Below are positions 7,672 to 64,000 of a stretch of DNA of 64,000 nucleotides, in pieces. Numbering within the stretch: the stretch's first letter is position 1; every line of letters starts with the position of its first letter. The notes under the pieces are model-generated. The model had not been told where the DNA came from, searched no databases, and was given only the letters and a program-made list of their open reading frames with translations. Location: positions 57,908,001 through 57,972,000 of the forward strand of contig OZ287753.1 of assembly GCA_965649765.1 (NCBI GenBank). Reading direction: 5' to 3'. Source of the DNA: Bispira polyomma. Taxonomy: Eukaryota. Both the position numbers and the translations under genes were made by a program.

Positions 7672-7706
<35 letters not shown>

Positions 7707-10180: not shown

Positions 10181-10269
10181 TTATTTCAATTCTATTTTAT
10201 CTTCCTAGATCACAACACTATTAATTTTACAAAGGCACTGTATGACAACAAGTGTAACGCTATTATTGC

Positions 10270-12030: not shown

Positions 12031-12094
12031 CGTCTACTAAAAAGGGCCGAAGCAATATTGTTGTCAGCATAAAATGCCATTGCTGATCCTGCAG

Positions 12095-12133
<39 letters not shown>

Positions 12134-12429
12134 TTTTTATAAGGGCAATCATTGGTGTAATACATGGTAAACAATACAAAGCATAGAATCTTTATGAAAT
12201 AAACTGCATTGTTTGCTACAAGCAAACAAATAACCATATGAATGGACGTTGGCGAAGATATGACCTCCTTTGCTGAGGAAATGTCAGATTTGAACACTCC
12301 AGCATGCCAAATTATAAGCCAAGTTAGCCATTCATTTTTTTTCCCCAACCATTTATTTCCTTTAATATATTACAGTACAGATGCAGTGCAGTACAATAAT
12401 GTGCTACAAATAATAATGTTGCTAGGATT

Positions 12430-12669
12430 TGCCCAGCAGTCCCCTTTAGGAGACTGCTAGTTCAGTCCACACACTACTATTCATTACACAACCTTAATTT
12501 CGGTTACACCATGGCTATGTAGCTACACCTGTTGTATACTAAGCACTAACCAATCAAATCACACACACTTGCTGTTTATGCTTCTCTTTTTAAACTCCAT
12601 ATTGAATTTTCATTCAAGTCACAAATTTCAAATGAAACACAAGTACAAAACAGAATATATTTTTTACAA
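12430..12669 (+). repeat. Element 1 repeat A1 (about 97% identical to A2 at 18016-18256)
   Basis: tgcccagcagt...gaatatattttttacaa present twice with a handful of differences. Confidence 0.95.
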
Positions 12670-12758
12670 AGGAATGAATTATAAATTTTATATTTTATGT
12701 TTTTAAAAATACTCGGTTTTATGTTATACATATATATAGTGAATTGGAAAGTGTAATT

Positions 12759-14135
12759 GTGGGTCGTACAAAGAAAACTCCCACACAGAGCACAGCAAAG
12801 AAATCGACAAAGAAACCGTTAACTTCAGAGAAAACAAAGACATGTCAGATTTCCGATTCTTTAGTTCAAAACCTTAGCAGTCAGTTATCCGCAGTAGAGG
12901 GCCCCTCTAGAAGTACCAGTCCAATTATACAGTCACACAGTGATGCCTCGCCACTTATGGCCCCTACTTAAGCCGGGTTCGGATGCGACTGAACAACAAA
13001 GTTCTGCACAGATACTAGCCATACTTATGAGGTTGGAGTCTTCCAACGCGGAACTATCTGATCGGTTAACGAAGGTCGAAGATCAAGCAACCGCGAGTAC
13101 AGCCAAGTTAATTACTCCACCACTCCTCGGGGCTGTTCACGAGCCATCCAACGGACAGAGGGCACACACATCTTCGTCGCTGCAGGGGAATTATCCCCAG
13201 TACAACCAGGCATCCACAGGGCCTTTCGGGCAAGTCGCACCAATACCACACCAACAGACGGGGTATCTCTCGCATACTACAGCACAGCCAACTGCTGCTT
13301 CTGCGTTCATCACTCAGCCAGTCGGCGTAGCAACAGGTTACATGAAAAATGTCGGGCGTGATGTCCTTGCTTCCACTCACACGGCATATGCGGGACACGA
13401 GTTCCAGCAGGATGGAATTGTCCCCAATCTTGACGCTTTGAGATCCATTCCACATGTGCAGGCTGAGGTGACGCGACAACTGGCCCAATACTCTGCTCTT
13501 GCCCAGCGTGACCTTTCACAAGGTAAGGCATCTCTCAAACACAAGTCTGGGCAATTCAATAATACAGATATTACTACCATTGATCCTCGTTTAAGGTGGC
13601 CGAACGACCGAACAAAGGCTGGGTAGGGGGTTCTTCTAAAAAGAACCCAGCGTTTGATGAATTAACCATGCCACAATGGGCTGCAGGGCAGCTTTCGAAC
13701 GCTCTACTGATTCCTAATCCGGAAGAAATGAAGGACGTCATTCGCAAAGTGATCTCTGCTCTCAGAGACGCTTTCTCTCTGCCATGGCATGTGGTCAGGA
13801 CAGCCTGGGCCCTCAGCATGCATGAGGTAGAAGAGGGTCGGCTGTCCTGGCAGAATGATACTCAGTGGTCACTTAACAGGCTGAGTGTGTCTTAATTGGC
13901 TATGGCTAACGGTAGCAGTGCAGGTAACATTAATAATAGTAGTGAATCCAAGATCATTTGTAAATTATACAACAATGGGAAGTGTACTCCTAAGACTGAC
14001 CACAACAACTATAAGCATATCTGTTGGCATTGCAGCCGAACCCTAGGAAAGGACTCGAACCATCCCGAGTTCAAATGCTACAGGACTAACAGTAAGCAGC
14101 TGGACAGCCAAGCGAACCAGGGGAAACAAAGTTAG
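12759..14135 (+). pseudogene. Element 1 gag-like ORF with C-terminal Cys/His fingers
   Basis: VGRTKKTP (GTG where element 2 has ATG-GRAKKTP); frameshifts near 12965 and 13605, internal TAA at 13893; CKLYNNGKC..HNNYKHICWHC..HPEFKC; aligns to 41242-42555. Confidence 0.85.
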
Positions 14136-16864
14136 GATTTGATTCAACAACCAGGAGGACGAACAATAAGCGTTAAAGTTGAGAACAGTGTAGTGGTAAA
14201 TTTGGGAAATAATAAGGTTTCTAGTAACAAGCAAGTTCCTGATAAAAAAGGGAAAATAAGTATATTAAATATAGACAGTACTCATTCTTATAATAATGTT
14301 AATGTTTGCAACAGTACATTGATACATAATGTTAGTACAACGTGTTCAAATAATGTCACAAGTTTTGTAGATGAGAGCATAGTGACTGACCACATAAGTA
14401 TACCAGAACATTGTGATATACTTATGAATAAATATTTTCAGCATAATTCCAGCAATGCTGTCCAGTCCCAGAGTCATGATCAGGAACCAGTTATTAGTGA
14501 TATGGAATCCCAAAGTTATGGTGATAATGGGAAAGCATTCGACAAAAATAATTTCAGTAGAAAACAGGTAGAAGTGACAGTTAATGTCACAAATTGGCAA
14601 CAATATTGTCTTAATTGGTCTATTTGGGCTCCTATAGTTTTCTTGGATTGTGTTCAGAAACAGATTAAAGGTTTCTACTACATGTATCACCATGGCTGGG
14701 ATAACGAAACGAAATATGTACCTGTGAGTGGTATGCCTCAAGGGGAACTTAAAATCATTCACAGTTATGTCACAGGCATATACATTAATCAAAACGTAAG
14801 AACTGGGTTTCTTATTAACAAAGAAAACCAGCTCAGTCCTGTAGAGATGGAACAAGCAAATAGTGTCTTTTATCACTTTAACAAAGATGTAGAATGTTAT
14901 CAGAAATTTGGTTGTGACTATACTGATCATATAGTTAACATTATTGATAATGTATGTAATGTCGAGACTGAAGTGATTAGCAGTGCAGAGAGAATACAAG
15001 TAAGTACTGCAAATGGAAAAAAGAACCAAAAGGTTTTTTCTTGCGATAAAATTTACACTTGTCCGATTCGTGACTTCTTCTCCCAAACTGACGGTGTGGA
15101 CACCACCCATACAGTAGGCTTTAAGGAAAATTCTGACATTAACTTACCTGAAAAAAAGTAGGATTTATCGCTCTTTCACACACAAACTTTAGCTTTATAG
15201 GCCCGGACCAGAAACCGATAGAAATTGATTCAGTAGAGAAAATGAAAGAGATTGCTGCCATAGTTAGAGGCACTAATATCCCTAATTATAGACAAGCTAG
15301 AATTCCTCTGCTTTCAGGTCTACATCATAGGGCCAGGGAAGAAATGTTAACCGATTACCCAGATCAATTGCCTTTACAATACATTAAGTTCGGTTTTCCG
15401 TTATCACTTAGGGATAAGATTATAAACCACTACTCTGCTCTGCAATACACCAACGAGGTGGGGCAATATCTTGATAAAGAAAAGTCAAAGGGAGCGATGT
15501 TAGGCCCAGTTAAGCAGGTGAATTCACCATATTTTCACTGTTCATCCCTTCTCACAAGGCCGAAAGACACAGACAAGCGTAGAGTAATACTTAACTTATC
15601 ATACCCACAAGGGCGATCTTTAAACGAGAATGTGGACAAAGATTTATTCGACGGCGTAAGATTTACTTTAAAATTTCCAACTATTGATAGCATAACAGAA
15701 GCTATACGCAACACCACAGATCCGGTATTGTTCAAAATTGACGTGGCCAGAGCGTTCCGTAATTTAAGAGTAGATCCGGCTGATGCTTTGAAACTTGGCA
15801 TCCAGTTTGCAGAAGGTCAATATATAGACCCTGCTATCGCGTTTGGGTGGGTACATGGAAGTGCGGCCTTCCAGCGATGTTCGGACGCCATAGCAGCACA
15901 CATGTCGAAACATAGCTTTAGACTATTCTGCTATATAGACGACTACATATGTGTTTGTACTAGGGACAAAGCAGATGAAGGTTTCAATATTTTAAAAAAT
16001 TTATTACTTAAGCTAGGTTTCCCTATGAACGATGATAAGTTAACACCACCCACTACTCACTTAGCATGCTTGGGAATAGATTTCGACATAATAGCAGGTA
16101 CCATCAGCATCCAACAAGAAAAAATTGCGGGTATTATGAGTATGATAACAGAAGTATCAAATAAGCAATACATCTCTCGTACAAAATTCCAGTCCTTATT
16201 AGGCAAGCTTTTATATGTGCACAAATGTGTACAACCAGCAAGAACATTCATTAATAGACTAGTTTTTCAATTTAGAAACAACCAAAACACCAAAAAATTT
16301 GAAATCTCCACTGAAAAGGAAAATGATTTAATTTGGTTTAAGAAATTCTTACCAAAGTACAATGGTATTACATACATTAATCATAAGGACATTTCACACA
16401 TAGACGAATTACATCTGGACGCCTGCTTATCAGGCTTAGGGGGCGTCTGGAACAAAGAAATTTATTCTACTCCATATTATAATGTATATGGCAGAGATCT
16501 CACTATAGTGCATCTGGAGATGCTTAACATTATATTGGCTCTTAAGATTTGGGGTGAAAAATGGGCTCACAGTAGACTGATAATTCACTGTGATAACATG
16601 GCTGTTGTACTGGTTGTTGAAAGCCAACAGACAAAAGACTCATTCCTAGCATTATGCTTGAGAAACATATGGTTATTGACAGCTACATATGATATCATTA
16701 TTGACATTAGACATATTCCAGGTAAGGACAATATTATAGCTGATGCATTATCTAGAATTTACTGTGAAACACGACCTAGCAGGGAAATATTACAAAATTT
16801 AGACAAAAACTATAACTGGAATCATGTTCGCATACAACATTTTGACCTGAATCTATTAATATAA
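14136..16864 (+). pseudogene. Element 1 pol: N-terminal extension + reverse transcriptase + RNase H (one frameshift near 15155)
   Basis: KIDVARAFRNL, AFGWVHGS, CYIDDY; RNase H DAC..E..CDN..ADALSR; -1 frame GFIALSHT matches the uninterrupted element 2 frame. Confidence 0.92.
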
Positions 16865-16870
16865 TTACAG

Positions 16871-17847
16871 GTTCTACAACCATCAGCCAACATTACATCA
16901 GCTCAGCCTGCAGCAGAATTGACACAGCCCTGAGACCAAAGACTACTGCTGCTTATGAGAATCAGTTCAAAACATTTTTGGCATTCAATAATTTCTCAGG
17001 CATTTCAACTATTTCTGTACATTCTGTCTTAGCATTTTTGGAATATTTAACTCAGAATAATATTTCCCCTCCTGTAGTGGCAAATTACATATCCTCGTTG
17101 AAATTTATGGCCAAGAAATTGAATTGGGATGTAGCTCCATTCAGCCACAACTCTGTGGCTCTGTTCATCAGAAGCATTACAATTAACTCAGATTTTCGTC
17201 CAAAACACAAAGGATTGTTTGAGATTTCACAATTAGCCAAAATTTCAGCAGCATGTGACATATTAGATGACCCTTTACTCTACAGATCTATATTTTTACT
17301 TGCTTATTTTGCTTTCCTCAGGTTGTCCAACATTGCTCCACACTCTAGGGCATCTTTTGATAATACTAGACATTTTCTTAGACAAGATGTAATCTTTGGA
17401 CAACCTGGGGCCCACATCATTCTGAAATGGGCCAAAAATCAACAAAATAGAACAGACACCCATATTATACAAATCCCACAGCTACAGAATAGGCTTATTT
17501 GCCCAGTATTAGCACTACAGAAACTATTATCGTCAAGATCTTTACCCCCTACGGCACCACTTTTTGCAATGACTTACACTCCATATCACACAGTAGTAGA
17601 AACACATGTGAGAATTGCCTTGGAAAAAGTACTTACACACATTGGCATCCAATATTCTTCCCATGGCTTCCACACATTCAGAAGGTCTGGAGCCACCTTT
17701 GCTTTCAACCACAATGTATCTTTACAAAATATAATGGCCCACGGGCTATGGCGATCATCATCAGTTTGGGCTTACTTACAGAAAACATCTCAGGCAGCAT
17801 CAGTGGTGCCTAATACCTTTGCCTCTGCTATTCCTCCTTCTTTCTAG
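16871..17847 (+). CDS. Element 1 tyrosine recombinase (open from a predicted splice acceptor; no early ATG)
   Basis: Catalytic R (FLRLSNI), K (WAKN), HxxR (HTFRRSG), HGLWRS, Y (AYL). Confidence 0.92.
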
Positions 17848-17855
17848 TTGGGCTT

Positions 17856-18256
17856 GGGGCTTAAAATTTACTAAAATTTTAACCATGATTTTACAAAATG
17901 TTTATCTGTACATAGTACTAATATGTATATAAAATAAAAGCTCAAACTGAATCTTCTTACTGACTTACAAAACCTTTTACACTGATCTTTATACCTCTAT
18001 AACTTAAGTGGACTGTGCCCAGCAGTTCCCTTTAGGAGACTGCTAGTTCAGTCCACACACTACTATTCATTACACAACCTTAATTTCGGTTACACCATAG
18101 CTATGTAGCTACACCTGTTGTATACTAAGCACTAACCAATCAAATCACATACACTTGCTGTTTATGCTTCTCTTCTTAAAACTCTATATTGAATTTTCAT
18201 TCAAGTCACAGATTTCAAATGAAACACAAGTGCAAAACAGAATATATTTTTTACAA
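17856..18256 (+). repeat. Element 1 internal B1 (17856-18015) + A2 (18016-18256) junction
   Basis: B1 matches B2 (2 mismatches in 160 bp); A2 matches A1. Confidence 0.95.
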
Positions 18257-18411
18257 CCCACCACCTCCCCTTAACCACAGCTTCCTGCTAGACTAATATT
18301 CAGCAGTACAGGTTGCCATGTAAAGTAGATTCACTCTTCATTAATGCTTTGGGAACAGACTACTACAGTATGTTTCCAAAAGGAAACTCGGCTAGAGCGG
18401 AAGGTGGATTC

Positions 18412-18544
18412 GAACCAGTGGCCATGTGGAGGGGCGATTCTGTCACTTATGCCTTCCCTGGGTCATACAATGCTTCGCCAGGAGGGGGTATGACCGGCAG
18501 AATTTCCCCTTGGCTAGGCGGTTGGTGCCATAGGCCGTTGGTTC
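18412..18544 (+). ncRNA. Putative structured cis-element in element 1 spacer
   Basis: Stems gaaccagtggcc/ggccgttggttc and gaggggcgattctgtc/ggcagaatttcccctt with G-U pairs; same topology in element 2. Confidence 0.55.
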
Positions 18545-18978
18545 CAAATCTTAGCCTGAACCTCGAATGCTAACAAGAGTGCTTAGTTGTAATGTGGTCA
18601 TTATAACGTATAAACTCGTTCATAGAACGAGAGTGTACAGAATATATGGGAATTGCAAGAAATGTTCAAACTTTAAATCTGTTAGTAACAATTACAGGAG
18701 TGGCTGTGAATAGTTTCTATGTATAAATAATGTGAACAAAGAGGAGAACACGGTTTATGAATGATTTACGGGTAAAGGAAATGTGCTCTACACAAGGTTT
18801 ATGATGAAATTATTCTTTTACATGTAACTTTTATTTTTTTTAATTCTATGGCTTGAATGTAACAAGAATGTTTTAGTATATTATATTAGTTATTGCATTA
18901 TTATTGGCTAGTCCTGATTTTTTTGTATTGGTTATATGTTTTATTGTTACGGCTAGTCCTTTGTCAGTCCCGTTGATA

Positions 18979-19138
18979 GGGGCTTAAAATTTACTAAAAT
19001 TTTAACCATGATTTTACAAATTGTTTATCTGTACATAGTACTAATATGTATATAAAATAAAAGCTCAAACTGAATCTTCTTACTGACTTACAAAACCTTT
19101 TACACTGATCTTTATACCTCTATAACTTAAGTAGACTG
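18979..19138 (+). repeat. Element 1 terminal repeat B2
   Basis: ggggcttaaaattt...taagtagactg, copy of B1. Confidence 0.95.
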
Positions 19139-19380
19139 ACTGTAAAAATGACATGCATTGTTACATTTATAAGACGTTTTTCCTGAACATTTCTTAAAAA
19201 AGAACCAATAATTAGCTGCTCATGAGTTACATAATTCCAAATAAGAATAACATGAACCTCTCTTATATTGTCTAAAAATTGGGTTAATTACTTTGACTTT
19301 ACAAAATACATTATTTTAGATTTTAACAGGTTATTTGTTAATTGTTAAATGTTGGATTGTGTTTGTTATGATTTAGATAT

Positions 19381-22070
19381 CTAAAAATATATTTCCCAAA
19401 TTGACCATTTCTTTTTGAAGAAATCACATGAGTGGTTTGTTTTAGATACATATTCTTGTTCTAGATGCTTATCCTTTATTATCTTTTGTAATCGATATAT
19501 ATTTAAATTGTGGTTATTTTTGGCACATGTAAATATGTATTGCCTAGTAATTACTAAAACAAAATTTAAAGGCCAGTATATTTTATCTCGGTACCAGTAT
19601 CCCAATATAAGAGTGGCCTGATTCAATTCTAGATTCACATTTATTTTTAATTCAATCCAAGATTTGACATTATTCCACAATTCTTTAACAACAGAACACT
19701 CTGAAAAAATATGTAAAATACTTTCACTGTTTTCACCACACATTCTACACAAATCTGAATTTGATATTTTTAATTTGTGCATATATTCTTTAGTGCCAAT
19801 TGTTCTGTGTATAATTTTAAATTCCATATATATGAATTATCTAATATTGAATAGAAGCACATATATATGAAGTCCATATATATGAATTATCTAATATTGA
19901 ATAGAAGCACACATTATATATTGATTTCCACATCTCTTTTTCACTTCTAATGTTGAGTTCTTGATTCCATTTTAACTGGTTCTTTCTATTATACGTTTCA
20001 GAATGACACAATGCATTATACACATCTTTGTTACCTTTTGTACAACTAATTAATATTGATATGTGGAATATATGGTCGCATACCATTTTCCAATTATCCC
20101 CTTTTTTGTTACTATTTATATATAGACTAATACGTTGCTTCACTGTAAGGTAATTTAGAAAGTTAATGTTTAACTTATACCTAAGTTTTAGATCTTCTAG
20201 ACCTATCATTTGATCATTTGAATCTAAAAGATCCCCAATTGTGTTAATGCCTCTTTTAGACCAATTTGAAAAATAAAGTTTGTTGCTGGAGATGTTTTTG
20301 TTGAACCAGATACAACTATGCATGATGTCATTATTTGACTGGATTTTTTTTTTACTCTACATGTTTCTATCCAATCCATTTTACATATGGTCTTTCTATT
20401 AATTTTATCTGGTTTTCCATCCCATAAATAGTGGTATGAAAGCTTATTTAATTCTTCAAGGGTACAGGGATTGTTAAAAAGAGATGATTAAATTTTGATA
20501 GGATCAGTGTTTTGATCACAGTTATTTTTCCAATGGGGGTTAGTATCCTGTTCTTCCACGACTTGAGAATATTTTTTACTTTTTCAAACACCTTATCATA
20601 ATTTATAGATGGGATATTATTTAAATTGGTTGAAAGTTCTAATCCCAAAAGTGAAAAATTGTGATCTCCCCAGTGTAGTTCTAATGAAACATTTAGCTTA
20701 TATTTGGAAAGCTTTTTACTGCCAATCCAAATAACTTTTGTCTTTTCTTTATTCATTCTTAACCCAGATAAATTTCCAAATATCTCTATTGTATTCAAAG
20801 CTGCCTGCAAAGAACGTCTACTACCATCTAGTATTAAGGTGGTGTCATTTGCAAATTGTGTAAGTTTAATTGTTTGGTTTCCTATTGTTATGCCTTTAAT
20901 ATCAATTTTTTTTTCAATTAATATAGTTAATATTTCAGCTGCAAACAAGAATAGATATGATGAAATCGGATCACCCTGTCTACACCCCTTTTCTATAGAT
21001 ATAGGGTCAGACATTACACCACATTGTAGTACATAAGCAATAACATTAGTATTAAAAAGTTTAATCCAATTTATAAAATCGTCAAAACCAAAAATGTATA
21101 ACACTTCATACAAAAATTTCCATGAAACTGAATCGAAAGCTTTTTCAAAATCAATCAGCAGTAACAAGCCGGGTATTTTCTTATTTTCTGTATAATGCAT
21201 TAAGTCATATGTAAGTCTAACGCCTTCTGTGATATGTCTGCCTTTTATAAAACCTGACTGGCTGTTTGAGATGATATTATCTAAATGTGGCTTCAACTTA
21301 TTGACTATAGCAGCTGATGCTAGTTTATATATAACGCATAATAGTGAGATAGGACGCCAATTTTAAATTAATTTTCTATCTTTGTTTCCTTTAGGTAGAC
21401 AGGTGATAATAACTTGCCTCATTGATATTGATAGTTGACCTTTTTTATAGCAAGAATTGATGCCATTGGTAATGAAAATTTTTAATTTTCCCAAAAATAC
21501 TTTCAAAAACTCAGCAGAAATACCATCTATCCCAGGCGATTTATTGTTTTTCATATTTTTAAGTGTAATACTTAGTTCAGATGTTTGGATATTACTTCCA
21601 AGATTGAATTCTTGAACTTTTTTAATAGCTGAAATGTATATTTTGTCAGAAAGATCAGATGTTTCTAATTCATCATCTCTATGTCTGAACAAGTCGCTAT
21701 AGAAATTTGCTACTTCTTTTAAAATACTTTTTTGGTCCATTATAATTGTACCATTTGTTAGCTCAAGCTTCTTAATCGTTTTATCAATAAAGGATTTATT
21801 CTTTAGTTTACAAAAATATGAAGTAGGTTTTTCCCCCTGACTTAGCCATTGCATTCTTGATCTAATTATGTGACCCTTGATTTTATGTTTGCACAAGCTT
21901 TCCAGTTCCACTTTTTTGTCTTCTAGCAACTTACTGTTGTTTTTACTAAAATTGTTTTCCGTATTTTCCAAACTATTTATATCTTGAATTAATGTACTTT
22001 CTTTAGAATTATGCTTCTTTTTGAGATATGTGGCATATTTAATTGTCTCTCCTCTTATCTGCAAAAACAA
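19381..22070 (-). pseudogene. LINE ORF2 (RT + C-terminal CCHC finger), frameshifted
   Basis: KSPGIDG, LLLIDFEKAFDSVSW, GCRQGDPIS, QFANDTT (YADD equivalent, mutated), CRMCGENSESILHIFSEC; ~50-bp internal tandem duplication at about 19821-19911. Confidence 0.9.
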
Positions 22071-22945
22071 AAGTTCTAAAAAGAGATCACTCTCAAAAAA
22101 TCATTTTTACTGGTATAACATCAACATTTCTTACTGGTGTAACGGTTGACCTTTATTGACCTGTGTTTAACTTAAGGTCCCTTTACCTAGTAATTGACAG
22201 TCTATAACTTGTTCGTTTTCAACGCATAGTTATGGTGCAGCAATGTTTAATTGTCATATTATATCATTATAGATTAACTGTACAACATAACCAATAAGTG
22301 CCCTTTGGACCAACCTTTAACAGATTGACATAAAAAGCTGTGAGTAAGTCACATTTCTCAATTAATCTACATACATATATATATATGCAGCACTTTATGG
22401 ACATTAACTTTATCACAAATGCCACACTCTTTATCCCCATGTAGCTCTTAGCTTTTTCTTTGTGATTCTAAGTGTAAAACTGTTATTAATACAAGTGACC
22501 ACATATACCCAATTTATAACCTTTAGTTCAGTGACTTTTTCCCCGACATCAAGCTCTCAGACAATCCATTACCACGGTGCCTGGTTTACATTGTTCACTG
22601 ACCTTTGAAGACAAGGTTGTTGTTTCCCCCTTGATTTCATTATTTGGGCTCTTTAAGCATATAGTGACAATATACGAGGGAAAAGACTTTGCCACACTAT
22701 CAATGTTCCACCCGCCGCTGGCCTCAGTGGTGTAGTGGTTAGTAGTGCCTGCTGCACACAATCACTGGCCTCTCACCATTGTGGGTTCAAATCTTTGTCA
22801 TTGATTCATTTGGTAAAGTTTTTGATGTACATGACATAGTTTGATAGTTTATGGTTATTTTTCACTAGCTTTTTTTTATCAGTAAATCTGGAATCTGGCC
22901 GTTGTGATGTGGCGTAAGTAAAAACATCCCTTTGAATATTTCACA

Positions 22946-26236: not shown

Positions 26237-27822
26237 GTTATTAGTATTATGTGATTACTTATATAGCGCTTTAGCTTGGTAGCTCAAAACACTGCACAAT
26301 AATGAAAATGTAAAAGCAATGTGAAAAAGTAAAAGACTGTAATTTAAAAAAGGTAAAAATAAAAAGAGATAAAAAGAACAGTGCAGGACTTAAGGACATC
26401 AGAAGTCAATAAGCTATTTTAAAAAGGTGCGTTTTTAAAAGTTTTTTAAAGACTGAACAGTACTAGCCCTTCTTATATAGTCTGGTAGTTGATTCCATAG
26501 GAAAGGGCCATATTTTGTGAAAGCCCAATCTCCAGCTTTATTGTTTGTCTTAGTTTGCAATAATTTTAAGCAGGTGCTTGATCTTAGTTGTCTCTTTGGA
26601 ACAGATACTTGTACAAGTTCAGATAAGTATTTTAGTGCCATGTGGTGCAGACATTTAAATACATATATGAAAAACCGGAAATCCACTCTTTGCTCTACTG
26701 GTAGCCAGTGTAAATCATAATGTGGTTTGGTAACATGTTCATATGATGGAAGTCTGTATATGAGATGTGCAGTAGAATTTTGAATGTGCTCTGTGTGAGA
26801 GATTGTATTTGCTAATCCCAAATAGATGACTGAAGCAATGGTCTATATGTGATTGTACTAAAGCCTGAACTAATGACTTGCATGCCTCAAGTATTTTGTA
26901 ATACGGTACAGTTTCCTCATTTGACCATTGATATTTCTTGCTTTTGCTTCGACAATTCATAGTAAGAGACCTATCCATTACTACATCCAGATTTCGGACA
27001 CAGTCTGATTAGGATATTCCACAGTCACCAATATGTATTTGAAAGTTTCGACTGTCAATCAATTTGTCTACATTTCTCTAAACAATCTATTTGTTTGATT
27101 AACATTTTGTTTGTGATTAATTTTGACATATAATCGAGAGTCATTAGTATAAAATATATTTTCAACTCCAAAGATTTCAGCAATATAACACACTGGGCTC
27201 ATGTATAAGGTGAACAATAATGGTCCCAAGACTGATCCCTGTGGCACCCCAATAAGAGTAAACATTTTAGGTGATATAGAGTTCCAAATTTTGACAGACT
27301 GTGATCTATTCATCAGGTATAACTTAAACCAGGAAAGTGCAACATCGGTAATTCCAAATCTAGTTGATAATCTTTTCAGTAATGTACAGTAATCAACAGT
27401 ATCAAACGCCGCACTAAGATCCGACATGGCTAATGCAACTGACTGTTTATTGTCGATGGATGACAAGTTATCATTTTCTATTCTCAGGAGTGTGGTCTCA
27501 GTAGAATAAAATGCCCTAAAAGCTGATTGATTCTCTTGCCAAAGGGTATTGACATCCAAATGTAATTTCAATCGGGAGGCTTGTTCCAGAACTTTAGAAA
27601 TAAAAAACAAATTGGAAACTAGGCAATCATTTTTAAAGCCATTCTTATTCAATCTCTTCTTTTTTAAAAGTGGTGTTATCATTGCATGCTTAAAAGATGT
27701 AGGACATTCACCTGACACCTTGCTGGTACCAGAGAATCAATATGCTCTTTCAGTAGGTCTGTTGGTATGGGATCAAGCTCACATGAAGCTGCTGATGACT
27801 AAACATATTTCCTAAAATGATT
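26237..27822 (-). mobile_element. L2-like LINE, 3' part (RT and tail), degenerate
   Basis: SCELDPIPTDLLK, FKHAMITPLLKK, STETTLL, DLSAAFDTVD, GVPQGSVLGPLLF, LHWLPVEQR; 3' end gcgctatataag..taataa. Confidence 0.9.
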
Positions 27823-40908: not shown

Positions 40909-41120
40909 TACACAGCACGACCCTAAAGGGGTATGCTTATTCAGTTCCCTTAGCAAATATATACCTTTACCTTAACCCCTAGGGGTCCATTCGAGTACTG
41001 TTCAATGGCCTCTCTTTCGATTAACCAATGGGAGACATTTGAACCCCAAATTTTACCTCTCACATGGTCATCCTACCATATTGAATTTCGTTTTACAAGA
41101 GACAACATTAGAAATATTTT
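40909..41120 (+). repeat. Element 2 repeat A1 (probable internal promoter)
   Basis: 212-bp exact copy of A2; contains taaccaat and ccatattgaattt, also present in element 1 A1. Confidence 0.95.
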
Positions 41121-41241
41121 TGGCGACACTTAATGACAAAGTGTCTGAACTTTATAGCCTTTTAGTATTTTAGTTTTTTACCTTGGAGTGGGTTTTATCA
41201 TATACATATTGTTTTAACTGTGAATTATATACCGTGTACAC

Positions 41242-42555
41242 ATGGGACGAGCTAAGAAAACACCGATGAAGGCAGCACCCAAGTCGAAACAACAGAAGAA
41301 GTCTACTGTGAAGGGTACAAAGGGTAATGTAGCTCATACCACTGACATGAATGAAAGTATTATAGAAGACCTACGGGTACCGTCCGAGCAAGCTCTCTGC
41401 TCTCATCAAAATTCGCCTCAAGCGGGATGTTCCACCTTCCCGATGGCGGGCTCGGTAGATTTACAACATCCAATGCCACAAGCGATGCAATCCGTTACTT
41501 CGGTTAATCCTACCAGTGATAACGTAGCAATATTGACAATGTTGAATCGAATGGAGCAATCTAACGCTGCCATAGCCCGTTGGTTGGACCAGATAGAAGC
41601 TAGGGGGGTTACACCTGTACAGACAACTGCCGTGTCCACTACAGCGCTTCAACCGGCTTACGTACCCTCACCAGTGATACAGCCTACCAGTGGTTATGGA
41701 AATATAACCGGTTCGCCTGCTTCAGTCGTGCAGCCAGCGTCCGTATCCAGCACAGCGCTTCCACCAGCTTATGTTCAGCCTACCAGCGGTTATGGACGTT
41801 TGGTCGGGCCCACTACTACAGCTTCAACCTCAGCTGAATACACACGTGATGGAATTGTTCCTAAGACGGACATTCTGAGGTCGATGCCCGAGGTGCAAGC
41901 CTTAGTGAATCAGCGGCTGGCTGAGTATGAAGTCAGGGCACAAGCTATCTTTAACCAAGGTAAGGTTCATTCGCGACAGAAGTCGGGACGTTATAACAAT
42001 ACTGACATAGCGGCCACAGATCCGCGCATGAAATGGGCTAACGAAGGTTGGAGTGGGGGGTCTTCACGTAAGCGTCCAACGTTTGACGAGCTTTCCCTTC
42101 CACATTGGGCTGCAGGGCAGTTGTGTAATGCTCTACAGATAAGCGACAACCAGCTGTTACGTGATATGATCCAGCAAGTAGTACTCTCGCTGAAGGATGC
42201 TTCGTCGCTCCCCTGGGAGGTCGTCCGCACGGCTTGGGCGACAAGCATGCAGGAGGTCGAGGAAGGTCGGCTGACCTGGAATAACACTACTCAGTGGTCG
42301 CTCAACCGAATTAGCGCGTCCCAGACAGTGATGGCTAATTCATCTCACAGCACAGGTTCGGCTGGTGCGTATACGAGGAGATCCACGATTTGCAAGTTGT
42401 TTAATTCAGGGAAATGTTCCCAGAAGAATGATCATGGAAATTACAAGCATGCCTGCTGGCATTGTGCTACCGTTTTGAATAAAGATTCGCCTCATCCTGA
42501 GTTTAAGTGCTACAAGGCTAATTCCACAAAACAGTTGGAAAATAAGCATAGTTAG
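41242..42555 (+). CDS. Element 2 gag-like protein, 437 aa, C-terminal Cys/His fingers
   Basis: ATG start; basic N-terminus, low-complexity middle, conserved C-terminal half, CKLFNSGKC..HGNYKHACWHC..HPEFKC. Confidence 0.9.
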   Translation: MGRAKKTPMKAAPKSKQQKKSTVKGTKGNVAHTTDMNESIIEDLRVPSEQALCSHQNSPQAGCSTFPMAGSVDLQHPMPQAMQSVTSVNPTSDNVAILTMLNRMEQSNAAIARWLDQIEARGVTPVQTTAVSTTALQPAYVPSPVIQPTSGYGNITGSPASVVQPASVSSTALPPAYVQPTSGYGRLVGPTTTASTSAEYTRDGIVPKTDILRSMPEVQALVNQRLAEYEVRAQAIFNQGKVHSRQKSGRYNNTDIAATDPRMKWANEGWSGGSSRKRPTFDELSLPHWAAGQLCNALQISDNQLLRDMIQQVVLSLKDASSLPWEVVRTAWATSMQEVEEGRLTWNNTTQWSLNRISASQTVMANSSHSTGSAGAYTRRSTICKLFNSGKCSQKNDHGNYKHACWHCATVLNKDSPHPEFKCYKANSTKQLENKHS

Positions 42556-45336
42556 GACCTTGACCGACTACCAGTGAAAGAAACATTAGCAGTGAGTTGT
42601 AGGGACAGAACTGTAAAAACTGATGTATCTAAGTCAATAAATTTCAAAGATAATGACATTGTAAACTATACTGATCAAGGCATTTTGCCCAACTATTTGG
42701 AAATTATTCATAATGATAAACAATGCATGCATAATATAATTGATATCAATGATACTGGCATTGCTACACAGTTTGAGGGCAACCAAATGGAACATAATGA
42801 GGAAAAAAAGATTATATATGAAAATCGTACACATGTAGACAGTCCTTATAGTGATTCTGGGGATACAACCAATAAAAATAAAAAATTGGCAAATATAACA
42901 GGTGAAGACAAGTTCCATTTGGGTACCACAAATACTGTAAGAAATGTTTCTAATTTTAGTGCTAAATGTCCACAGGGCATGGAAAGCAGTGGTTACAATG
43001 TGTTAGATTCCACACAAGCATATGTGGAGATTTCGAAAACAAATTGGCAATTTTGCACCGATATTGGGGGACCATTGTTCCCCGTGGTTTTCTTGAACTC
43101 TCTTCACTCAGAAATTAATGGTTTTTATACCTGGAGGGATGGGGGTCACACAAAAGGGAGTGCATTAGTAAAATGTCTTGGCACTCCAATAGGTCCTATT
43201 CATATTTTAGGAAAATTCTGTACACAGGTAACCATCATGGAAAGTCATGAGGACATTATGGATGTTCATAATGTATACATTCCTACGGATACTGATCACA
43301 TGGTGGCTAGAAATACCTGCTATCATTATAAGAAAGATATTGAATGTCAACAACGGGATAATGTTAATTATACTACATATATAACTAACTTAATCGATAA
43401 GTTGATTGAAGCTGATGATATAGTCACATAGCCATTTCATAATTGTACAAACTTGGACATGCATGAAGGGAAGACAAAACTTCATCGCAAGGACAAGTCA
43501 CTGGATGGAGGACAAGCAAATATCACAGTGTACGAATTTAAGGATCATGGTTCAGAGATAGATAGTCAGAATAAGGTAATTAAGGATTTTAACTTTCCAG
43601 ATAAGGATATGGGTTTTATTGCTTTAAGTCATACAGAATTTGAATTCTGTGGCCCAGATAGGGCTCCAATTAAAATTACTACAGTGCAACAAATGGTGGA
43701 TATAGCTCACACAATCAAGGATTCTGGTTGTGCCAATTATAAGGGCGCCAGAATTCCAATAGCTTCTGGATTACAAATCCAGGCTTGGGAGAAGGTCTTG
43801 CTTGATTATCCGGATAAGTTATTACTCCAATATTTAACTTTTGGGTTTCCACTTTCTCTTGAGCGTTCTGAAAATCTAACAGTTAAGGAAGTTTCTAATC
43901 ATAGTTCTGCCCTGCAACATGCAGAGGCAGTTAGTCAATATATCAGTAAGGAACAAGTCAATGGTGCCATGTTAGGTCCAGTTAAGAAAATAGATAGCGA
44001 GTTGTTTCACTGTTCCCCCTTACTCACTCGTCCTAAAGACAAAAATAAACACAGAGTGATCCTTAACCTCTCTTATCCGGAAGGCAATTCGGTTAACAGT
44101 AATGTAGATAAACAACGTTTCGATGGAGTCGAATTCGCTTTAAAGTTCCCTACCATAGATGACATTGTAGCAAAAATCAGGGATACTGATAATCCTAAGA
44201 TATTCAAGTTGGATATTTCGAGGGCATTTAGAAATTTAAGAATAGATCCGGTCGATGCCATGAAGCTAGGTATCTGTTTTGATGAATATAAGTATATTGA
44301 TCCGGCTATGGCGTTCGGATGGATACACGGATCCGGATCTTTTCAGAGATGCTCTGACGTCATAGCTTACACCATGAGCAAACGTAAACATACTATATTT
44401 TGCTACATTGATGACTACATCGGAATATCACCTGCTCATGAGGCAAAAGGCGCTTTTAACGAACTTTATGACTTAGTAACGTCCTTGGGTCTTCCCCTAA
44501 ATCCGGACAAGATCTCACGTCCTAGTAGAAATATAACTTGCCTGGGGATAGATATTGACATAGAGGAGGGCATTATTAGTATTTCCAAGGAAAAATTGGA
44601 ACAAACTTACGAATGTTGCCAACAAGCTTTTAATAAGAAGTGGATGTCTAGAAGAAATTTCCAATCTGTCTTAGGCAGGCTTCTCTATGTTCATAAGTGT
44701 GTTAAACCGGCTAGGATTTTTATAAATCGATTATTAATGGCTTTCAGGAAGAATGCTCATGCAAAACGATTTCATATTACTAATGATATAAAAGCAGATT
44801 TGCTTTGGTTTATACGTTTTCTTCCCTTGTATAATGGCATAACTTATATCGATCCAATAATTCCTCCTCACCAGAATGAAGTATTCATTGATGCATGCTT
44901 AACTGGTTTAGGGGGGGTTTATACTGACCAAGTTTTTGCTTCTCCATTTTATAACATCTATAACCAGCATCTGTCCATAGTGCATATTGAAATGCTTAAT
45001 ATATTAATTGCCTTGCGTGTGTGGGGGATACAGTGGAAACATAAGAGAATAATTATTAACTGTGACAACATGGCTGTGGTACTGGTAGTTAGGTCTGATA
45101 AGACTAAGGACCAATTTTTAGCTTTATGTTTAAGGAATATGTGGCTGCTTACTGCAGCTTATGACATTACTTTAATTATTCAGCATGTTAGGGGGAAGGA
45201 CAATACTATAGCAGACATTTTATCAAGGTTATACTCAGACCACCCACCAACTGGTCACCAGCTCCACATGTTAGAAACAGGATATAAATGGCATAGTATT
45301 CCTATTCAATATTTTAACTTAAATTTACATGTTTAA
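42556..45336 (+). CDS. Element 2 pol: N-terminal extension + RT + RNase H, in frame with gag; one internal TAG at 43429-43431
   Basis: 41242, 42574 and 43453 share one frame; KLDISRAFRNL, AFGWIHGS, CYIDDY, DAC..E..CDN..ADILSR. Confidence 0.92.
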
Positions 45337-45342
45337 TTGTAG

Positions 45343-46319
45343 GAACCAACACCGTGACTCAACACCTTATGAATTCTGCATGGAAACGGGTCTCTTCAGC
45401 ATTACGTCCAAAGACTACTGCTACATACAACCAACAGTTTAGAACTTTCATTGCTTTTCTTATATTTGTTGGCATAGAGGACATTTCAACTAATTCTGTT
45501 ATAGCATTTTTGGAGTACCTGGTGCAAAACGGGTCTTCCCCTAATGTTTTAACCAACCATTTATCAGCTCTAAAGTTCACAGCTAACAAACTATATTGGA
45601 ACCAAAATATTTTCGAAAATGCTTCAGTTTCCATGTTCATTAGGAGTTTGTCACATTCTTCTACTTTTAGACCTCAACCTAGGGGTATTTTTGATATTAC
45701 ACATTTACAACAGATATCTAAAGCATGTGACATTCTGGGGGATCCCCCATTATATAGGGCAATATTTCTGGTGGCATACTTTGGATTCCTTAGAATCTCA
45801 AACATTGCTTCACATTCCAGAAATAAATTTGACCCCACTCGTCATTTCCTTAGAAAGGATGTTGTGTTTGGCCATCCTGGAGCCCATTTAATACTTAAAT
45901 GGGCTAAGAACCTACAAAATAGATCAGAACATCATGTAATTCAATTACCCCAACTGGAGAATATACATTTGTGCCCAGTCAGGGCACTTCATAAATTGTT
46001 AGATTCAAGGTCTTTGCCTTTGGAGTGTCCACTTTTTGTTACTGCAAGTTTTCCTCATGTTCCCATTGTGGACACTCATGTCAGATATTCTTTAACTTTA
46101 GTTTTACAACATATAGGTATACCACACAAAGGTCATAGTTTCCACACATTTAGAAGGTCAGGAGCTACCTATGCTTTTAACAATAACGTTTCTCTCCAAA
46201 ACATTATGTCTCACGGGTTATGGAGATCTTCAGCAGTCTGGGTTTATCTTCAGAAAACTCCTCAGGCTGCTGCAACTATTCCCCTTGCATTTGCTTCCTC
46301 TATCCCTTCTTCCCTTTAG
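45343..46319 (+). CDS. Element 2 tyrosine recombinase
   Basis: FLRISNI, WAKN, HTFRRSG, HGLWRS, VYL; clearly homologous to element 1 YR over its full length. Confidence 0.95.
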
Positions 46320-46326
46320 TTTGGCT

Positions 46327-46744
46327 TGGGATATTTTAAAATTCTCTCTTTAAATTTTAAAAAAACTTGAAATTTTTTGACCTACCCTGTATATACCTTA
46401 CTAATGTGTATATAAAATAAACCTCAAACTACTATCTATTAATTTCATTTACTTCACCTTTAATTACTACAAGGTCACCTAATCTGCTTCTTATCTCTAT
46501 ATCTTTACCTCACTTTGCAAACAGGAGAACTGTACACAGCACGACCCTAAAGGGGTATGCTTATTCAGTTCCCTTAGCAAATATATACCTTTACCTTAAC
46601 CCCTAGGGGTCCATTCGAGTACTGTTCAATGGCCTCTCTTTCGATTAACCAATGGGAGACATTTGAACCCCAAATTTTACCTCTCACATGGTCATCCTAC
46701 CATATTGAATTTCGTTTTACAAGAGACAACATTAGAAATATTTT
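46327..46744 (+). repeat. Element 2 internal B1 (46327-46532) + A2 (46533-46744) junction
   Basis: Direct copies of B2 and A1. Confidence 0.95.
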
Positions 46745-46833
46745 CCCGCCTCCTCCCCTTACCACAGCTAGTTTAAGGAAATTTTGAGATATACAAGATA
46801 TAATATGTATTATTTGTTACTCTTCCTACAATC

Positions 46834-46975
46834 GGGCCCAAGACCGAGTGGAGGCCGAGTCCAGTCTACTTAAACCTCTCCCCTGAGCATCACATTTAGG
46901 GAGCCAGGGTGGAATAAGAGCTCTGAGAGGCTGGACTTACCTCTGCCAGGCGGTGTTGTCCAAGGTCTTGGGTTC
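46834..46975 (+). ncRNA. Putative structured cis-element in element 2 spacer
   Basis: Stems gggcccaagacc/ggtcttgggttc, gtggagg/cctctgc, gagtccagtct/aggctggactt; unpaired AGGCGGT. Confidence 0.55.
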
Positions 46976-47399
46976 TAATGGCATTGCAGTGTACTTGCTG
47001 TAGGTAGAGAGCGTCCCTATTAGGGGTAATCATATTTGAGCGTAGGACATTAGATTATGTTATTAGACTATATAAAGATATTTATTTAGATTTTATGTAT
47101 TAGGAGTTGCATATCGAACATATATGTGCACATAAGAGGCACAAATTATGATCTTAACGTATAGAGACTAACGTAAAATAGGTATTGCATAGGATATAAT
47201 CACTGGATTATGAGTTGTAGAGAGTGACGGCTTATTAGGACAGTATAGACTTTATGGTTTACATATATGAAGGGTGCTGTTAGTAGAGTGAAGGAGATTT
47301 AGTATATGCCTGTGTTTAACGACATACTTCAGTTATGGTATTTGCTATACACTGTTTAAATTGTCTTATTGTGATTTGATTTATGAGTATTACTCATAG

Positions 47400-47605
47400 T
47401 GGGATATTTTAAAATTCTCTCTTTAAATTTTAAAAAAACTTGAAATTTTTTAACCTACCCTGTATATACCTTACTAATGTGTATATAAAATAAACCTCAA
47501 ACTACTATCTATTAATTTCATTTACTTCACCTTTAATTACTACAAGGTCACCTAATCTGCTTCTTATCTCTATATTTTTACCTCACTTTACAAACAGGAG
47601 AACTG
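47400..47605 (+). repeat. Element 2 terminal repeat B2 (contains AATAAA)
   Basis: Copy of B1; tactaat(a/g)tgtatataaaataaa..ctcaaact shared with element 1 B. Confidence 0.95.
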
Positions 47606-54899: not shown

Positions 54900-55407
54900 T
54901 CCAAATTGCCACTGGAAAATCATTTTCATTATCATAACACATTAAATTTCTGCTGATAATTTCTCAGCTCTTTTTTACTGCTTGCCCTTTGCTTTTGTTG
55001 CTTTTTGTTTCTATAGTATATAAATAGACACAGACTGGCATATGTGGATAAAACATTGCCAGTACGTTATACCAAAGGCAATATAAAAACAACTTAAAAG
55101 AGCAACCTCAAAAAGATGTGTAAAATAACAATTGTCACTCCCCAGTACCTTTAAGTAACAGGTAAAAATTTTTGTATTTTGTTATTGTTATTTCTCATGC
55201 ACATACAGGAGTGCCTGGAGGATGGACGAGGGGTCAATGACATTATACCACATGTCACCAGGATTTAATTTAACACACTGATCAAATTAACTAGACATGA
55301 TATTTTTGTTCGCTGCCTTAATCAAAGACTTATTATAAGATTGTATGTTTTCAACAAGGTTTGAATTTGTCCATGAAGAATCGTGAATGGGTGACTAAAG
55401 ACATATT

Positions 55408-56453
55408 GGCATACTGGTGTCATATTGGTAACGAGTACATGGGTAGTTTTGGATATGCAGATGATATAATTTTACTATGTCCAACGGTTTCTTGTATCAA
55501 AATAAAGTTACAGATATGTGACCAATTTGGTGCAGATTTTGATATGAAGTTTAATCCAGACAAATATCAACTGGTGGTGTTCAGTAAAAGTAGCATCAGA
55601 GATGATATATCTGGTATAACTCATAATAGTATATTTATTAAAGCTGTTAGAAGTGTTTCTCATTTAGGGTTGCAAATTAGCTCTGAGAATAAAAATGAAA
55701 TGGTTAAAGTGGCTAAGGATAAATTTACTGTAGCAACAAACTGTATAAATTCTATATTCTCTAAGGCCCATTCATTTGTCAGGTTTAAATTGTTCAAAAC
55801 ATATTGTATGTCACTTTATGGATGTGTTTTGTGGGATTATAATAGTAAAGAATTCAAGGATTTCACAATAGCTTGGAGGAAATCTGTCAGGCTAATATGG
55901 AGATTACCTCCACGTACCCACAACAGGTACCATAGTTCCATATGTGATGACCAAGAGTTGTACATGCAGATGTATAAGAGATTTTTAAAGTTTTTTCAAA
56001 GTTGTATTTCTAGTACTAACTATGTCATCTCTACTTGTGCTAAGCTGGCTTTGTCAGGGAATAGTTCTAATGTTAGCAATAATATAAATAGTATGTCAAA
56101 AATGGTCAATATTGGTAAAGATAAACTTGTTGAGACTTACAGTAACCAGATTTTTAAGACCTGTAGAAATGGTATGAATGAGACAAATGAATGTCATATT
56201 ATAGAAAATATTAAGGACTTACTGTATCTAAGGGATAACAACACTACAAGATTTACAAGGTATGAAATAAATTTTATGCTAAAATATCTATGTGAAGATC
56301 AATTATGAATAGAATTGTACATTTAAGTTAGCACCTCTTTTCTATACATACTTACTGTGCTGTTATAATTAATTAATCTGTTTTATTGTCTGTTTGTCAT
56401 TTATGTAGTTACGATGTACTGTGAGTACGAAAATAAACTATTATTATTATTAT
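55408..56453 (+). mobile_element. 5'-truncated LINE (RTE-X-like, clade tentative), ORF2 C-terminus open to 56308
   Basis: CHIG..GYADDIILLCPT, FNPDK, LFKTYCMSLYG..LW, AWRK..R.IW.LP.RTH; AATAAA at 56432 followed by a (tat)n tail; absent from copy 1 at about 40115. Confidence 0.85.
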
Positions 56454-61936: not shown

Positions 61937-64000
61937 ATGGAAGCCACTAACGCCAACCCAACAACCGTGTAGGCCAACCAGATGAGCACCTCCCAGCAGC
62001 AGCAGTGTTAGCAGGGACCACCACAGCAGTATCAGCAGGGACCAGCACAACCACAGCAGTACCAGCAGGGACCACCACAGCAATATCAGAAGGGACCACC
62101 ACAACCACAGCAGTTTCAGCAGGGACCACCACAACCACAACAATATCAGAAGGGACCACCACAACCACAACAGTTTCAGCAGGGACCACCACAACCACAG
62201 CAGTATCAGCCGGGACCACCACAACCACAGCAATATCAAAAGGGACCAAAAACCACAGCAATATCAGAAGGGACCATCACAACCACAGCAGCATCAGAAA
62301 GGACCACCACAACCACAGCAATATCAGAAGGGACCACCACAACCACAACAATATCAGACGGGACCACCACAACCACAGCAATATCAGAAGGGACCACCAC
62401 AACCACAGCAATATCAGACGGGACCACCACAACCACAGCAATATCAGAAGGGACCACCACAACCACAGCAGTACCAGCAGGGACCACCACAACCACAGCA
62501 ATATCAGCAGGGATCACCACAGCAGTATCAGAAGGGACCGCCACAACCACAGCAATATCAGCAGGGACCACCACAGCCACAGCAATATCAGAAGGAACCA
62601 CCACAACCACAGCAGTATCAGCAGGGACCACCACAACCACAGCAGTATCAGAAGGGACCACCACAACCACAGCAGTATCAGAATGGACCACCACAGCAGT
62701 ATCAGAAGGGACCACCACAACCACAGCAGTATCAGAAGGGACCATCACAGCCACAGCAGTATCAGAAGGGACCACCACAGCCACAGCAGTATCAGAAGAG
62801 ACCACAACAACCACAGCAATTTCAGCAGGGACCACCACAACCACAGCAATATCAGAAGGGACCACCACAACCACAACAATATCAAAAGGGACCACCACAA
62901 CCACAGCAGTATCAGAAGGGACCACCACAGCAATATCAGAAGGGACCACCACAGCAGTATCAGAAGGGACCACCACAACCACAGCAGTATCAGCAGGGAC
63001 CACCACAGCAATATCAGAAGGGACCATCACAGCCACAGCAGTATCAGCAGGGACCACCACAGCAATATGAGCAGGGACCACCACAACCACAGCAGTATCA
63101 GAAGGGACCACCACAACAATATCAGAAGGGACCATCACAACCACAGCAGCATCAGAAGGGACCACCATAGCCACAGCAGTATCAGAAGGGACCACCACAA
63201 CCACAGCAATATCAGCAGGGACCACCACAACCACAGCAATATCAGCAGGGACCACCACAACCACAGCAATATCAGAAGGGACCACCACAACCACAGCAGT
63301 ATCAGTAGGGACCACCACAGCCACAGCAGTATCAGCAGGGACCACCACAACCACAGCAATATCAGAAGGGACCACCACAGCAATATCAGAAGGGACCACC
63401 ACAACCACAGCAGTATCAGCAGGGACCACCACAGCAATATCAGAAGGGACCACCACAACCACAGCAATATCAGAAGGAACCATCACAACCACAGCAGTAT
63501 CAGAAGGGACCACCACAACCACAGCAATATCAGAAGGGACCATCACAACCACAGCAATATCAAAAGGGACCACCACAACCACAGCAGTATCAGAAGGGAA
63601 CACCACAGCAATATCAGAAGGGACCACCACAGCAGTATCAGAAGGGACCACCACAACCACAGCAGTATCAGCAGGGACCACCACAGCAATATCAGAAGGG
63701 ACCATCACAGTCACAGCAGTATCAGCAGGGACCACCACATCAATATCAGCAGGGACCACCACAACCACAGCAGTATCAGCAGGGACCACCACAACCACAG
63801 CAGTATCAGAAGGGACCACCACAACCAAGCAGTATCAAAAGGGACCACCACAACCACAGCAGTATCAGCAGGGACCACCACAGCAATATCAGAAGGGACC
63901 ACCACAACCACAGCGGTATCAGCAGGGACCACCACAGCCACAGCAGTATCAAAAGGGACCACCACAGCAGTATCAGCAGGGACCACCACAACCACAGCAA
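61937..64000 (+). pseudogene. Possible disrupted Gln/Pro-rich repeat ORF (MEATNANPTTV*ANQMSTSQQQQC*QGPPQQYQQGP...)
   Basis: ATG at 61937 in frame with GPPQPQQYQ(Q/K); common unit variants are synonymous in this frame; stops are TAG in CAG positions. Confidence 0.4.
61998..64000 (+). repeat. 24/30-bp minisatellite (accaccac[aaccac]agca(a/g)tatcag(a/c)aggg), continues past the window end
   Basis: Roughly 70 tandem units; accounts for all the V/P- and W/L-rich minus-strand ORFs. Confidence 0.98.

Follow-up and report, generated by a model that had tools for sequence, protein, structure and literature searches.

Two retrotransposons that fit the Ngaro type of tyrosine-recombinase elements are present in a 64,000-nucleotide (nt) stretch of the Bispira polyomma genome (GenBank assembly GCA_965649765.1, contig OZ287753.1, positions 57,908,001 to 57,972,000 of the forward strand; hereinafter the window). 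In both, the gag-like open reading frame (ORF) and the pol frame, which encodes a reverse transcriptase (RT) together with RNase H, form a single frame interrupted by TAG followed by G, and Pol is very probably made by readthrough of this stop codon. That the readthrough is stimulated by an RNA helix between the bases behind the stop and a distant site within the RNase H codons appears likely. Copies of these elements across the genome display a near-invariant TAG-G, a stop-free frame behind it, complementarity between the two sites and compensatory changes that maintain it. The principal features are listed below in window coordinates.

40909..47605, plus strand: element 2, a Ngaro-type tyrosine-recombinase retrotransposon with split direct repeats and Pfam matches to RT, RNase H-like and recombinase domains
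41242..42555, plus strand: gag-like ORF of element 2, 437 amino acids (aa) from ATG, with a Cys/His knuckle and then TAG at its end
42553..42556, plus strand: TAG-G of element 2, the predicted readthrough stop (AAG CAT AGT TAG GAC CTT)
42556..45336, plus strand: pol frame of element 2, with an unassigned domain (X), RT and RNase H; in this copy broken by a second stop at 43429-43431
42562..42576, plus strand: proximal helix arm of element 2 (+7 to +21 after the stop)
45080..45095, plus strand: distal helix arm of element 2, in RNase H codons V-L-V-V-R-S, 2,503 nt from the proximal arm
12430..19138, plus strand: element 1, of a family related to element 2, identified by its repeats and Pfam matches, with frameshifts and a stop disrupting its gag and pol
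14133..14136, plus strand: TAG-G of element 1 (AAA CAA AGT TAG GAT TTG)
14143..14154, plus strand: proximal helix arm of element 1 (+8 to +19)
16610..16621, plus strand: distal helix arm of element 1, a perfect complement of 12 base pairs (bp), lying 2,455 nt from the proximal arm within RNase H codons

The genome (1.03 Gb) was searched with DNA and protein queries, and 160 loci were taken, a small part of several thousand candidates, picked for diversity and partly for open frames. Removal of 8 duplicates left 152 unique loci; the junction was mappable in 147 (the 5 unmapped loci were left out). Grouped at 85% identity, these copies make up 34 families, among them five decayed singletons near the family of element 1. 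The junction codon is TAG in 140 of the 147 copies, followed by G in every one of them, and CAG, TGG or TAA in 3, 2 and 2 copies, respectively. TAG-G is the commonest form in 33 of the 34 families, and the sense codons (5/147) are scattered among single copies of five different families. The first-pass annotation of the window, which placed the two stop codons and their flanking codons correctly (TAG at 42553-42555 and 14133-14135), had named the invariance of TAG-G among family copies and the preservation of the frame among relatives as tests of readthrough; both are borne out, the frame being kept among families whose median identity at the gag end is 58%. The conserved AGT-TAG-GA context that it described holds for TAG-G itself; the codons beside it vary freely, and the other conserved part of the junction is a pattern of bases at +10 to +19.

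From the junction to the first ATG, 71 stops occur in the pol frame versus 724 and 1,387 in the other two frames (6,836 codons). This count covers all 147 copies, with the distance to ATG limited to 60 codons, and is free of circularity because the copies in this test were unselected. The first in-frame ATG after TAG is 57 codons away in element 2 and 96 in element 1, close to the approximately 55 and 95 given previously, and anywhere between 10 and 270 codons away across the copies. The frame is open from TAG to the YxDD motif of the RT in 32 copies from 12 families, over 478-726 codons; many other loci are decayed or end earlier. The ratio of nonsynonymous to synonymous polymorphism (pN/pS), a weak test here, is 0.64 before the first ATG and 0.69 after it, compared with 0.15 in the gag core. 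Given the depletion of stops in the pol frame, the variable position of ATG and the similar pN/pS on both sides of it, the codons from the stop onward behave, as judged from these alignments, as translated ones, and no start codon marks the beginning of pol. In seven full-length sister copies, 443 and 926 codons flank one single TAG, for a total of 1,364 residues from ATG, so the predicted Gag-X-RT-RNase H frame of about 1360 aa does exist in intact form. That TAG is the sole separator of gag and pol is thus true of these sisters and not of the two window copies, which are broken further on: element 1 has a broken gag and a frame change near 15150-15161, and element 2 has the second in-frame stop. 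Because a sense codon occupies the position equivalent to 43429-43431 in 26 of the 27 readable sister copies (3 of the 30 were unreadable) and 32 open copies are found elsewhere, these later breaks look like decay of single copies.

The first-pass annotation had found no convincing pseudoknot behind the stop by eye, and the present analysis agrees: in none of the 34 family representatives does the region fold locally with a z-score below -2 relative to shuffled sequences in any of four windows (the program models no pseudoknots, but the stems of any pseudoknot are missing as well). The structure instead appears to be long-range. Inspection by eye showed that in each of the two window elements the +10 to +19 pattern is complementary to RNase H codons, one pair being swapped between them. 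Across families, positions +7 to +20 pair with RNase H codons located 2.1-2.9 kb downstream, in a register where base +i faces base 37-i, the latter numbered from the Asp in the D-N-x-A-V-V motif. Invariant bases of the pattern face the first and second positions of Val and Leu codons, which are fixed as well, and those bases of the pattern that vary do so in step with the wobble positions. The set in which the helix was examined comprises 86 copies from 28 families, with both window copies added and one family moved 3 nt by hand; two loci were dropped, L062, where the motif had been taken from a second, inserted element, and L093, which has a deletion at the site.

The pairs at +14 alone take five forms among the 28 families (T-A in 10, A-T in 8, G-C in 7, C-G in 2 and T-G in 1), so that 27 of 28 are Watson-Crick pairs, compared with 8.2 in shuffles; positions +17 and +19 are likewise Watson-Crick paired in 27 of 28 families each. 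Over the five variable columns, 119 of 140 cells are Watson-Crick versus 61.9 +/- 5.6 after shuffling, a value that none of 20,000 shuffles reaches. Set against 1,543 control columns of pol, the true partner gives the best Watson-Crick match at five of the six positions; at the sixth it shares first place. Simulations on the tree matched the observed counts 1, 0, 0, 2 and 2 times in 8,209-19,339 runs, and by parsimony the minimum numbers of double changes are 6 at +14, 3 at +17, 3 at +19, 5 at +11 and 5 at +20. When 13,590 column pairs were scanned without guidance, the three that ranked highest for covariation all belonged to the helix register, and global minimum-energy folds of stretches of 2.5-2.9 kb form 8-10 of the 10 core pairs in all eight elements tested. 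In 14 of the 28 families the first base of the helix is +7, and in another 4 it is +8. Many single duplexes also contain a second helix (+25 to +34), for which no register stands out. The covariation indicates that the helix is almost certainly real.

The helix lies within a predicted intron, the removal of which would join the first part of Gag to the recombinase. The features involved are the following.

41957..41965, plus strand: predicted phase-1 splice donor in gag of element 2, AAG|GTAAG, with the intron beginning at 41960
45334..46319, plus strand: end of the pol frame of element 2 (stop 45334-45336), predicted phase-1 acceptor ending at 45342 and tyrosine recombinase exon to 46319
13520..13528, plus strand: predicted phase-1 donor of element 1, with the intron beginning at 13523
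16862..17847, plus strand: pol stop of element 1, predicted acceptor ending at 16870 and recombinase exon

A phase-1 donor (AAG|GTAAG or AGG|GTAAG) is the commonest form in all 28 scorable families, and a T-rich phase-1 acceptor precedes the recombinase in 25 of 26 families, which supports the predicted Gag-recombinase splice and is consistent with the suggestion, made in the first-pass annotation, that one start codon yields three products. The pol stop codon lies within the predicted recombinase acceptor (45334-45343 and 16862-16871), and in each of the 15 open copies that were scored, the acceptor AG ends 9 nt past the start of the pol stop; owing to this fixed distance, the recombinase frame was dropped as a free control relative to gag. 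No processed, spliced genomic copies were found among the best 150 of about 10,000 recombinase matches, which were screened for long open frames; two frames longer than 400 aa (602 and 1,253 aa) turned out to be pol-recombinase frameshift fusions. Among the joints listed for three contig runs of unknown kind, none is at the donor, an observation that carries no weight for or against splicing.

According to the proposed mechanism, TAG would be a leaky programmed stop at which the majority of ribosomes terminate, freeing Gag, and which a minority would pass to make the Gag-X-RT-RNase H protein of approximately 1,360 aa. The stimulator would be the predicted RNA helix of 12-18 bp that starts about 6 nt behind the stop and involves the RNase H codons 2.1-2.9 kb downstream. 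Positions +7/+8 are approximately where mRNA enters a ribosome with the stop in the A site, in the account given in PMC13517186. If it forms in vivo, the helix would thus stand at the ribosomal mRNA entrance and would hinder termination, and a near-cognate tRNA would then decode UAG. Because both arms are within the predicted intron, Pol would be produced only from unspliced RNA that still holds the RNase H region. Passage of these ribosomes into pol would melt the distal arm and could in this way keep the rate of readthrough in check.

Comparison with relatives suggests that recoding at this junction is widespread. Among 80 metagenome loci of distant relatives, some of them near-copies, the end of Gag was readable in 37; in 20 of these, pol is in frame behind TGA; another 8 show a -1 overlap that includes a slippery heptamer, a +1 overlap occurs in 1, and the remaining 8 are broken. 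Of the TGA loci, 17 have TGA-C and 9 have TGA-CTA, which is described as the type II readthrough context (PMC13517186). A second lineage of tyrosine-recombinase retrotransposons from the same genome, a piece of which is also inserted in locus L062, has pol in the -1 frame and an A-AAA-AAC heptamer just before the gag stop. An 8-9-bp local hairpin is located 6-7 nt behind the heptamer in 17 of 20 loci, a combination that, by its sequence, is a textbook -1 frameshift signal. Since these relatives join Gag to Pol through textbook signals, recoded Gag-Pol is likely the rule. The UAG-G elements comprise one side of a fully supported branch (11 rows) in a tree whose rows are unnamed relatives only, and the three devices require at least three changes on the RT tree of 34 rows. 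No common site for a long-range partner was found in the UGA relatives, which are single copies. By analogy with the relatives, the predicted long-range helix of the UAG-G clade occupies the place of their local structure. Taking all parts together, we lean towards a one-helix readthrough switch, the second strand of which resides in the wobble positions of the enzyme that it turns on; Pol would come solely from full-length unspliced RNA, the switch would be melted by its own translation, and the Ngaro group would use at least three interchangeable devices (UAG-G with a distant helix, UGA-C, and a -1 frameshift with a hairpin).

Several observations weigh against this interpretation. By itself, UAG-G is a weak context according to PMC13517186. 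All 34 family representatives have G after the stop, but only 13 of them match the exact type III hexamers (UAG followed by GGV, GUA or GAU). The similar junction of the Tca2 element, taken alone, gave no readthrough in the yeast reporter described in PMC2194720. The UAG-G families all belong to a single clade from a single genome and therefore represent one origin. The pN/pS before the first ATG is weakly below 1, and a protein-guided alignment pushes this value down. The start of the helix spans +1 to +9, in addition to the hand shift in one family; in duplex predictions, the cognate partner ranked first of 28 in 13 of the 28 families (mean -27.3 versus -18.1 kcal/mol), and the true site is the best duplex within its own element in 22 of 28. 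Finally, covariation shows selection on the pairing and not the job of the helix. In favour of the interpretation, requirement of a downstream or long-range structure for readthrough at UAG-G has precedents in the systems described in PMC13517186, PMC3234231 and PMC5893793.

The alternative that survives best, albeit an unlikely one, is that Pol is made by readthrough while the helix does another job, such as setting the balance of spliced and unspliced RNA, protecting the unspliced RNA against nonsense-mediated decay, or acting in the packaging or dimerisation of genomic RNA. Both arms are located in the predicted 3.4-kb intron, the donor being about 600 nt and the acceptor 250 nt away, so that formation of the helix would also draw the two splice sites together, and its function cannot be named from covariation. 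However, the proximal arm is fixed relative to the stop (every one of the 34 representatives has C at +13), whereas the distance from the donor to the stop varies by 30 nt (587-617 nt), and the local hairpin of the frameshifting sister lineage is found at the same 6-nt offset; both facts speak against this alternative.

It is considerably less probable that Pol results from alternative splicing, from the gag donor to a YAG at +17 to +19, which would make readthrough unnecessary. The G at +19 is present in 27 of the 34 representatives, and this YAG is in phase 1, matching the donor. Yet the site has AA in 6 of the 34 families and, unlike the predicted recombinase acceptor, has no T-rich tract; in 4 families, no phase-1 YAG occurs within 60 nt. 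Position +19 rather seems to be part of a base pair, because, in 27 of 28 families, its G or A goes with the C or T in the Leu codon far downstream; the pairing explains five of the six families with AA, via TTG or TTA Leu codons. The TAG|G sequence itself is out of phase for the donor and purine-rich upstream, and splicing to +19 would leave the invariant TAG-G unexplained.

Separate translation of Pol, through re-initiation, leaky scanning, an internal entry site or a transcript from an internal promoter, is comparably improbable. Tca2 is reported to have a minor promoter at its gag-pol junction along with non-canonical stop bypass (PMC2194720), and all open copies of the Bispira elements contain some ATG upstream of the RT. 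The position of this ATG is, however, unconserved (10-270 codons), the frame is open all the way back to the stop, and separate translation would not need TAG-G in the pol frame.

ADAR enzymes favour the triplet UAG and the helix is nearby, but removal of the stop by adenosine-to-inosine editing (UAG to UIG, read as Trp), or a host that reads TAG as sense, is hardly credible: the stop is outside the helix in all 28 family duplexes (computed from +1 onward, with the start usually at +7), edited RNA copied back into the genome should enrich TGG, which is seen in only 2 of 147 copies next to 3 CAG and 2 TAA, and both recombinase ORFs of the window end in TAG.

The proposed readthrough with stimulation by the distant helix shares its parts with several known systems. 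UAG-G readthrough between gag and pol, with a local pseudoknot in gammaretroviruses, and long-range signals, in tombusviruses and their kin, are already known, the latter from the accounts in PMC3234231 and PMC5893793. Moloney murine leukemia virus (type III, UAG-G) has the same single gag-pol frame with a structure a few bases behind the stop (described in PMC2194720 and PMC13517186); there, the structure is a local H-type pseudoknot after an 8-nt spacer, whereas here none of the 34 representatives shows a stable local fold and the second strand is 2.1-2.9 kb away. The proximal and distal readthrough elements (PRTE-DRTE) of the tombusviruses carnation Italian ringspot virus and tomato bushy stunt virus similarly serve UAG-G readthrough for the polymerase that depends on pairing over kilobases; as described in PMC3234231 and PMC5893793, the contact is made between a short bulge in a large local stem-loop and a hairpin in the 3' untranslated region. 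In the present elements, which are animal-hosted retrotransposons, there is no local stem-loop, the predicted 12-18-bp helix would be the structure itself, and the partner lies in synonymous positions of RNase H codons. Tca2 of Candida albicans is a copia-type element. Like the elements described here, it is a retrotransposon with an in-frame stop between gag and pol, but it differs in having a UGA stop, long terminal repeats and a proposed local pseudoknot, and the abstract and Background of PMC2194720 mention no distal partner.

The described Ngaro elements, members of the order DIRS, have the same A1-ORFs-B1-A2-B2 repeats and the same gag, RT/RNase H and tyrosine recombinase, with no methyltransferase; in the relevant sections of PMC9210276 and PMC3783388, their ORFs are separate or overlapping, and no mechanism is given for the production of Pol. 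The Bispira elements differ in having gag and pol in one frame, a fixed UAG-G, the long-range helix and a recombinase that is predicted to be expressed from a splice. The literature search found no report of readthrough or frameshifting in Ngaro/DIRS elements, nor of a long-range readthrough signal in retrotransposons; the original Ngaro papers, subscription reviews and Repbase notes may mention in-frame stops. By term search, 'readthrough' and 'read-through' do not occur in PMC8547959 or PMC6681497, nor does 'stop' in PMC9210276 or 'frameshift' in PMC7192593, and the sole 'read-through' in PMC12440569 concerns transcripts. The readthrough idea has forerunners; the unexpected part is that the predicted structure is a single long-range helix encoded in wobble positions of the very enzyme concerned.

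The assignment of both elements to the Ngaro type follows from their split repeats, the order of gag-like ORF, RT/RNase H and tyrosine recombinase (Pfam RVT_1, RVT_3, Phage_integrase and SAM-like) and the lack of a methyltransferase match, and not from a tree with named Ngaro sequences; on these features, they fit the definition given in PMC9210276 and PMC3783388. In both elements, the repeats occur in the order A1, ORFs, B1, A2, B2.

Element 2, split direct repeats: A1 40909-41120, B1 46327-46532, A2 46533-46744, B2 47400-47605
Element 1, split direct repeats: A1 12430-12594, B1 17856-18015, A2 18016-18180, B2 18979-19138

A Dam/MT (methyltransferase) domain was not found in either element (Pfam, E 0.05), and pol stops shortly past RNase H; the missing match separates these elements from PAT, which has the same repeat layout. 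The gag-like ORF has no Pfam match and was called from its position and the Cys/His knuckle; its nearest Atlas matches are unnamed eukaryotic clusters. Domain X (approximately 42950-43430 in the window) has a conserved T-N-W core and an invariant P and Y, and is predicted to form a beta sheet and two helices. It shows no match in Pfam, PDB sequences or Atlas and no Foldseek match at E 0.001; the structural model (mean predicted local distance difference test score, pLDDT, of 57; best Z 4.0) is no proof of a new fold. The spacers between A2 and B2 (46745-47399 and 18181-18978) contain GC-rich blocks that are loosely similar between the two elements. An Rfam scan of element 2 gave three weak matches only, all under the gathering score. 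Protein searches for element parts yielded 7,470-12,556 first-look candidates genome-wide, and several families have many near-identical open copies; by these counts, Ngaro-type elements appear to be a large, recently active group in this genome.

Elsewhere in the window, other RT fragments of LINE-like (long interspersed nuclear element) appearance, with Pfam RVT_1 matches, are located at 19381-22100 (minus strand), 26435-27736 (minus strand) and 55322-56308 (plus strand). The end of the window (61949-64000) is a tandem array of 30/24-nt units with a strong strand skew and long open frames. No tRNA gene was found in the window.

If the proposed mechanism is true, long-range readthrough signals would extend from plant RNA viruses to animal retroelements. 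Reporters that contain only the junction can then miss a genuine signal, and the outcome with Tca2 may have arisen in this way. The covariation also shows 'synonymous' sites of a conserved enzyme to be under selection for RNA structure. The defined element of 12-18 bp, with its natural compensatory variants, makes the question directly testable.

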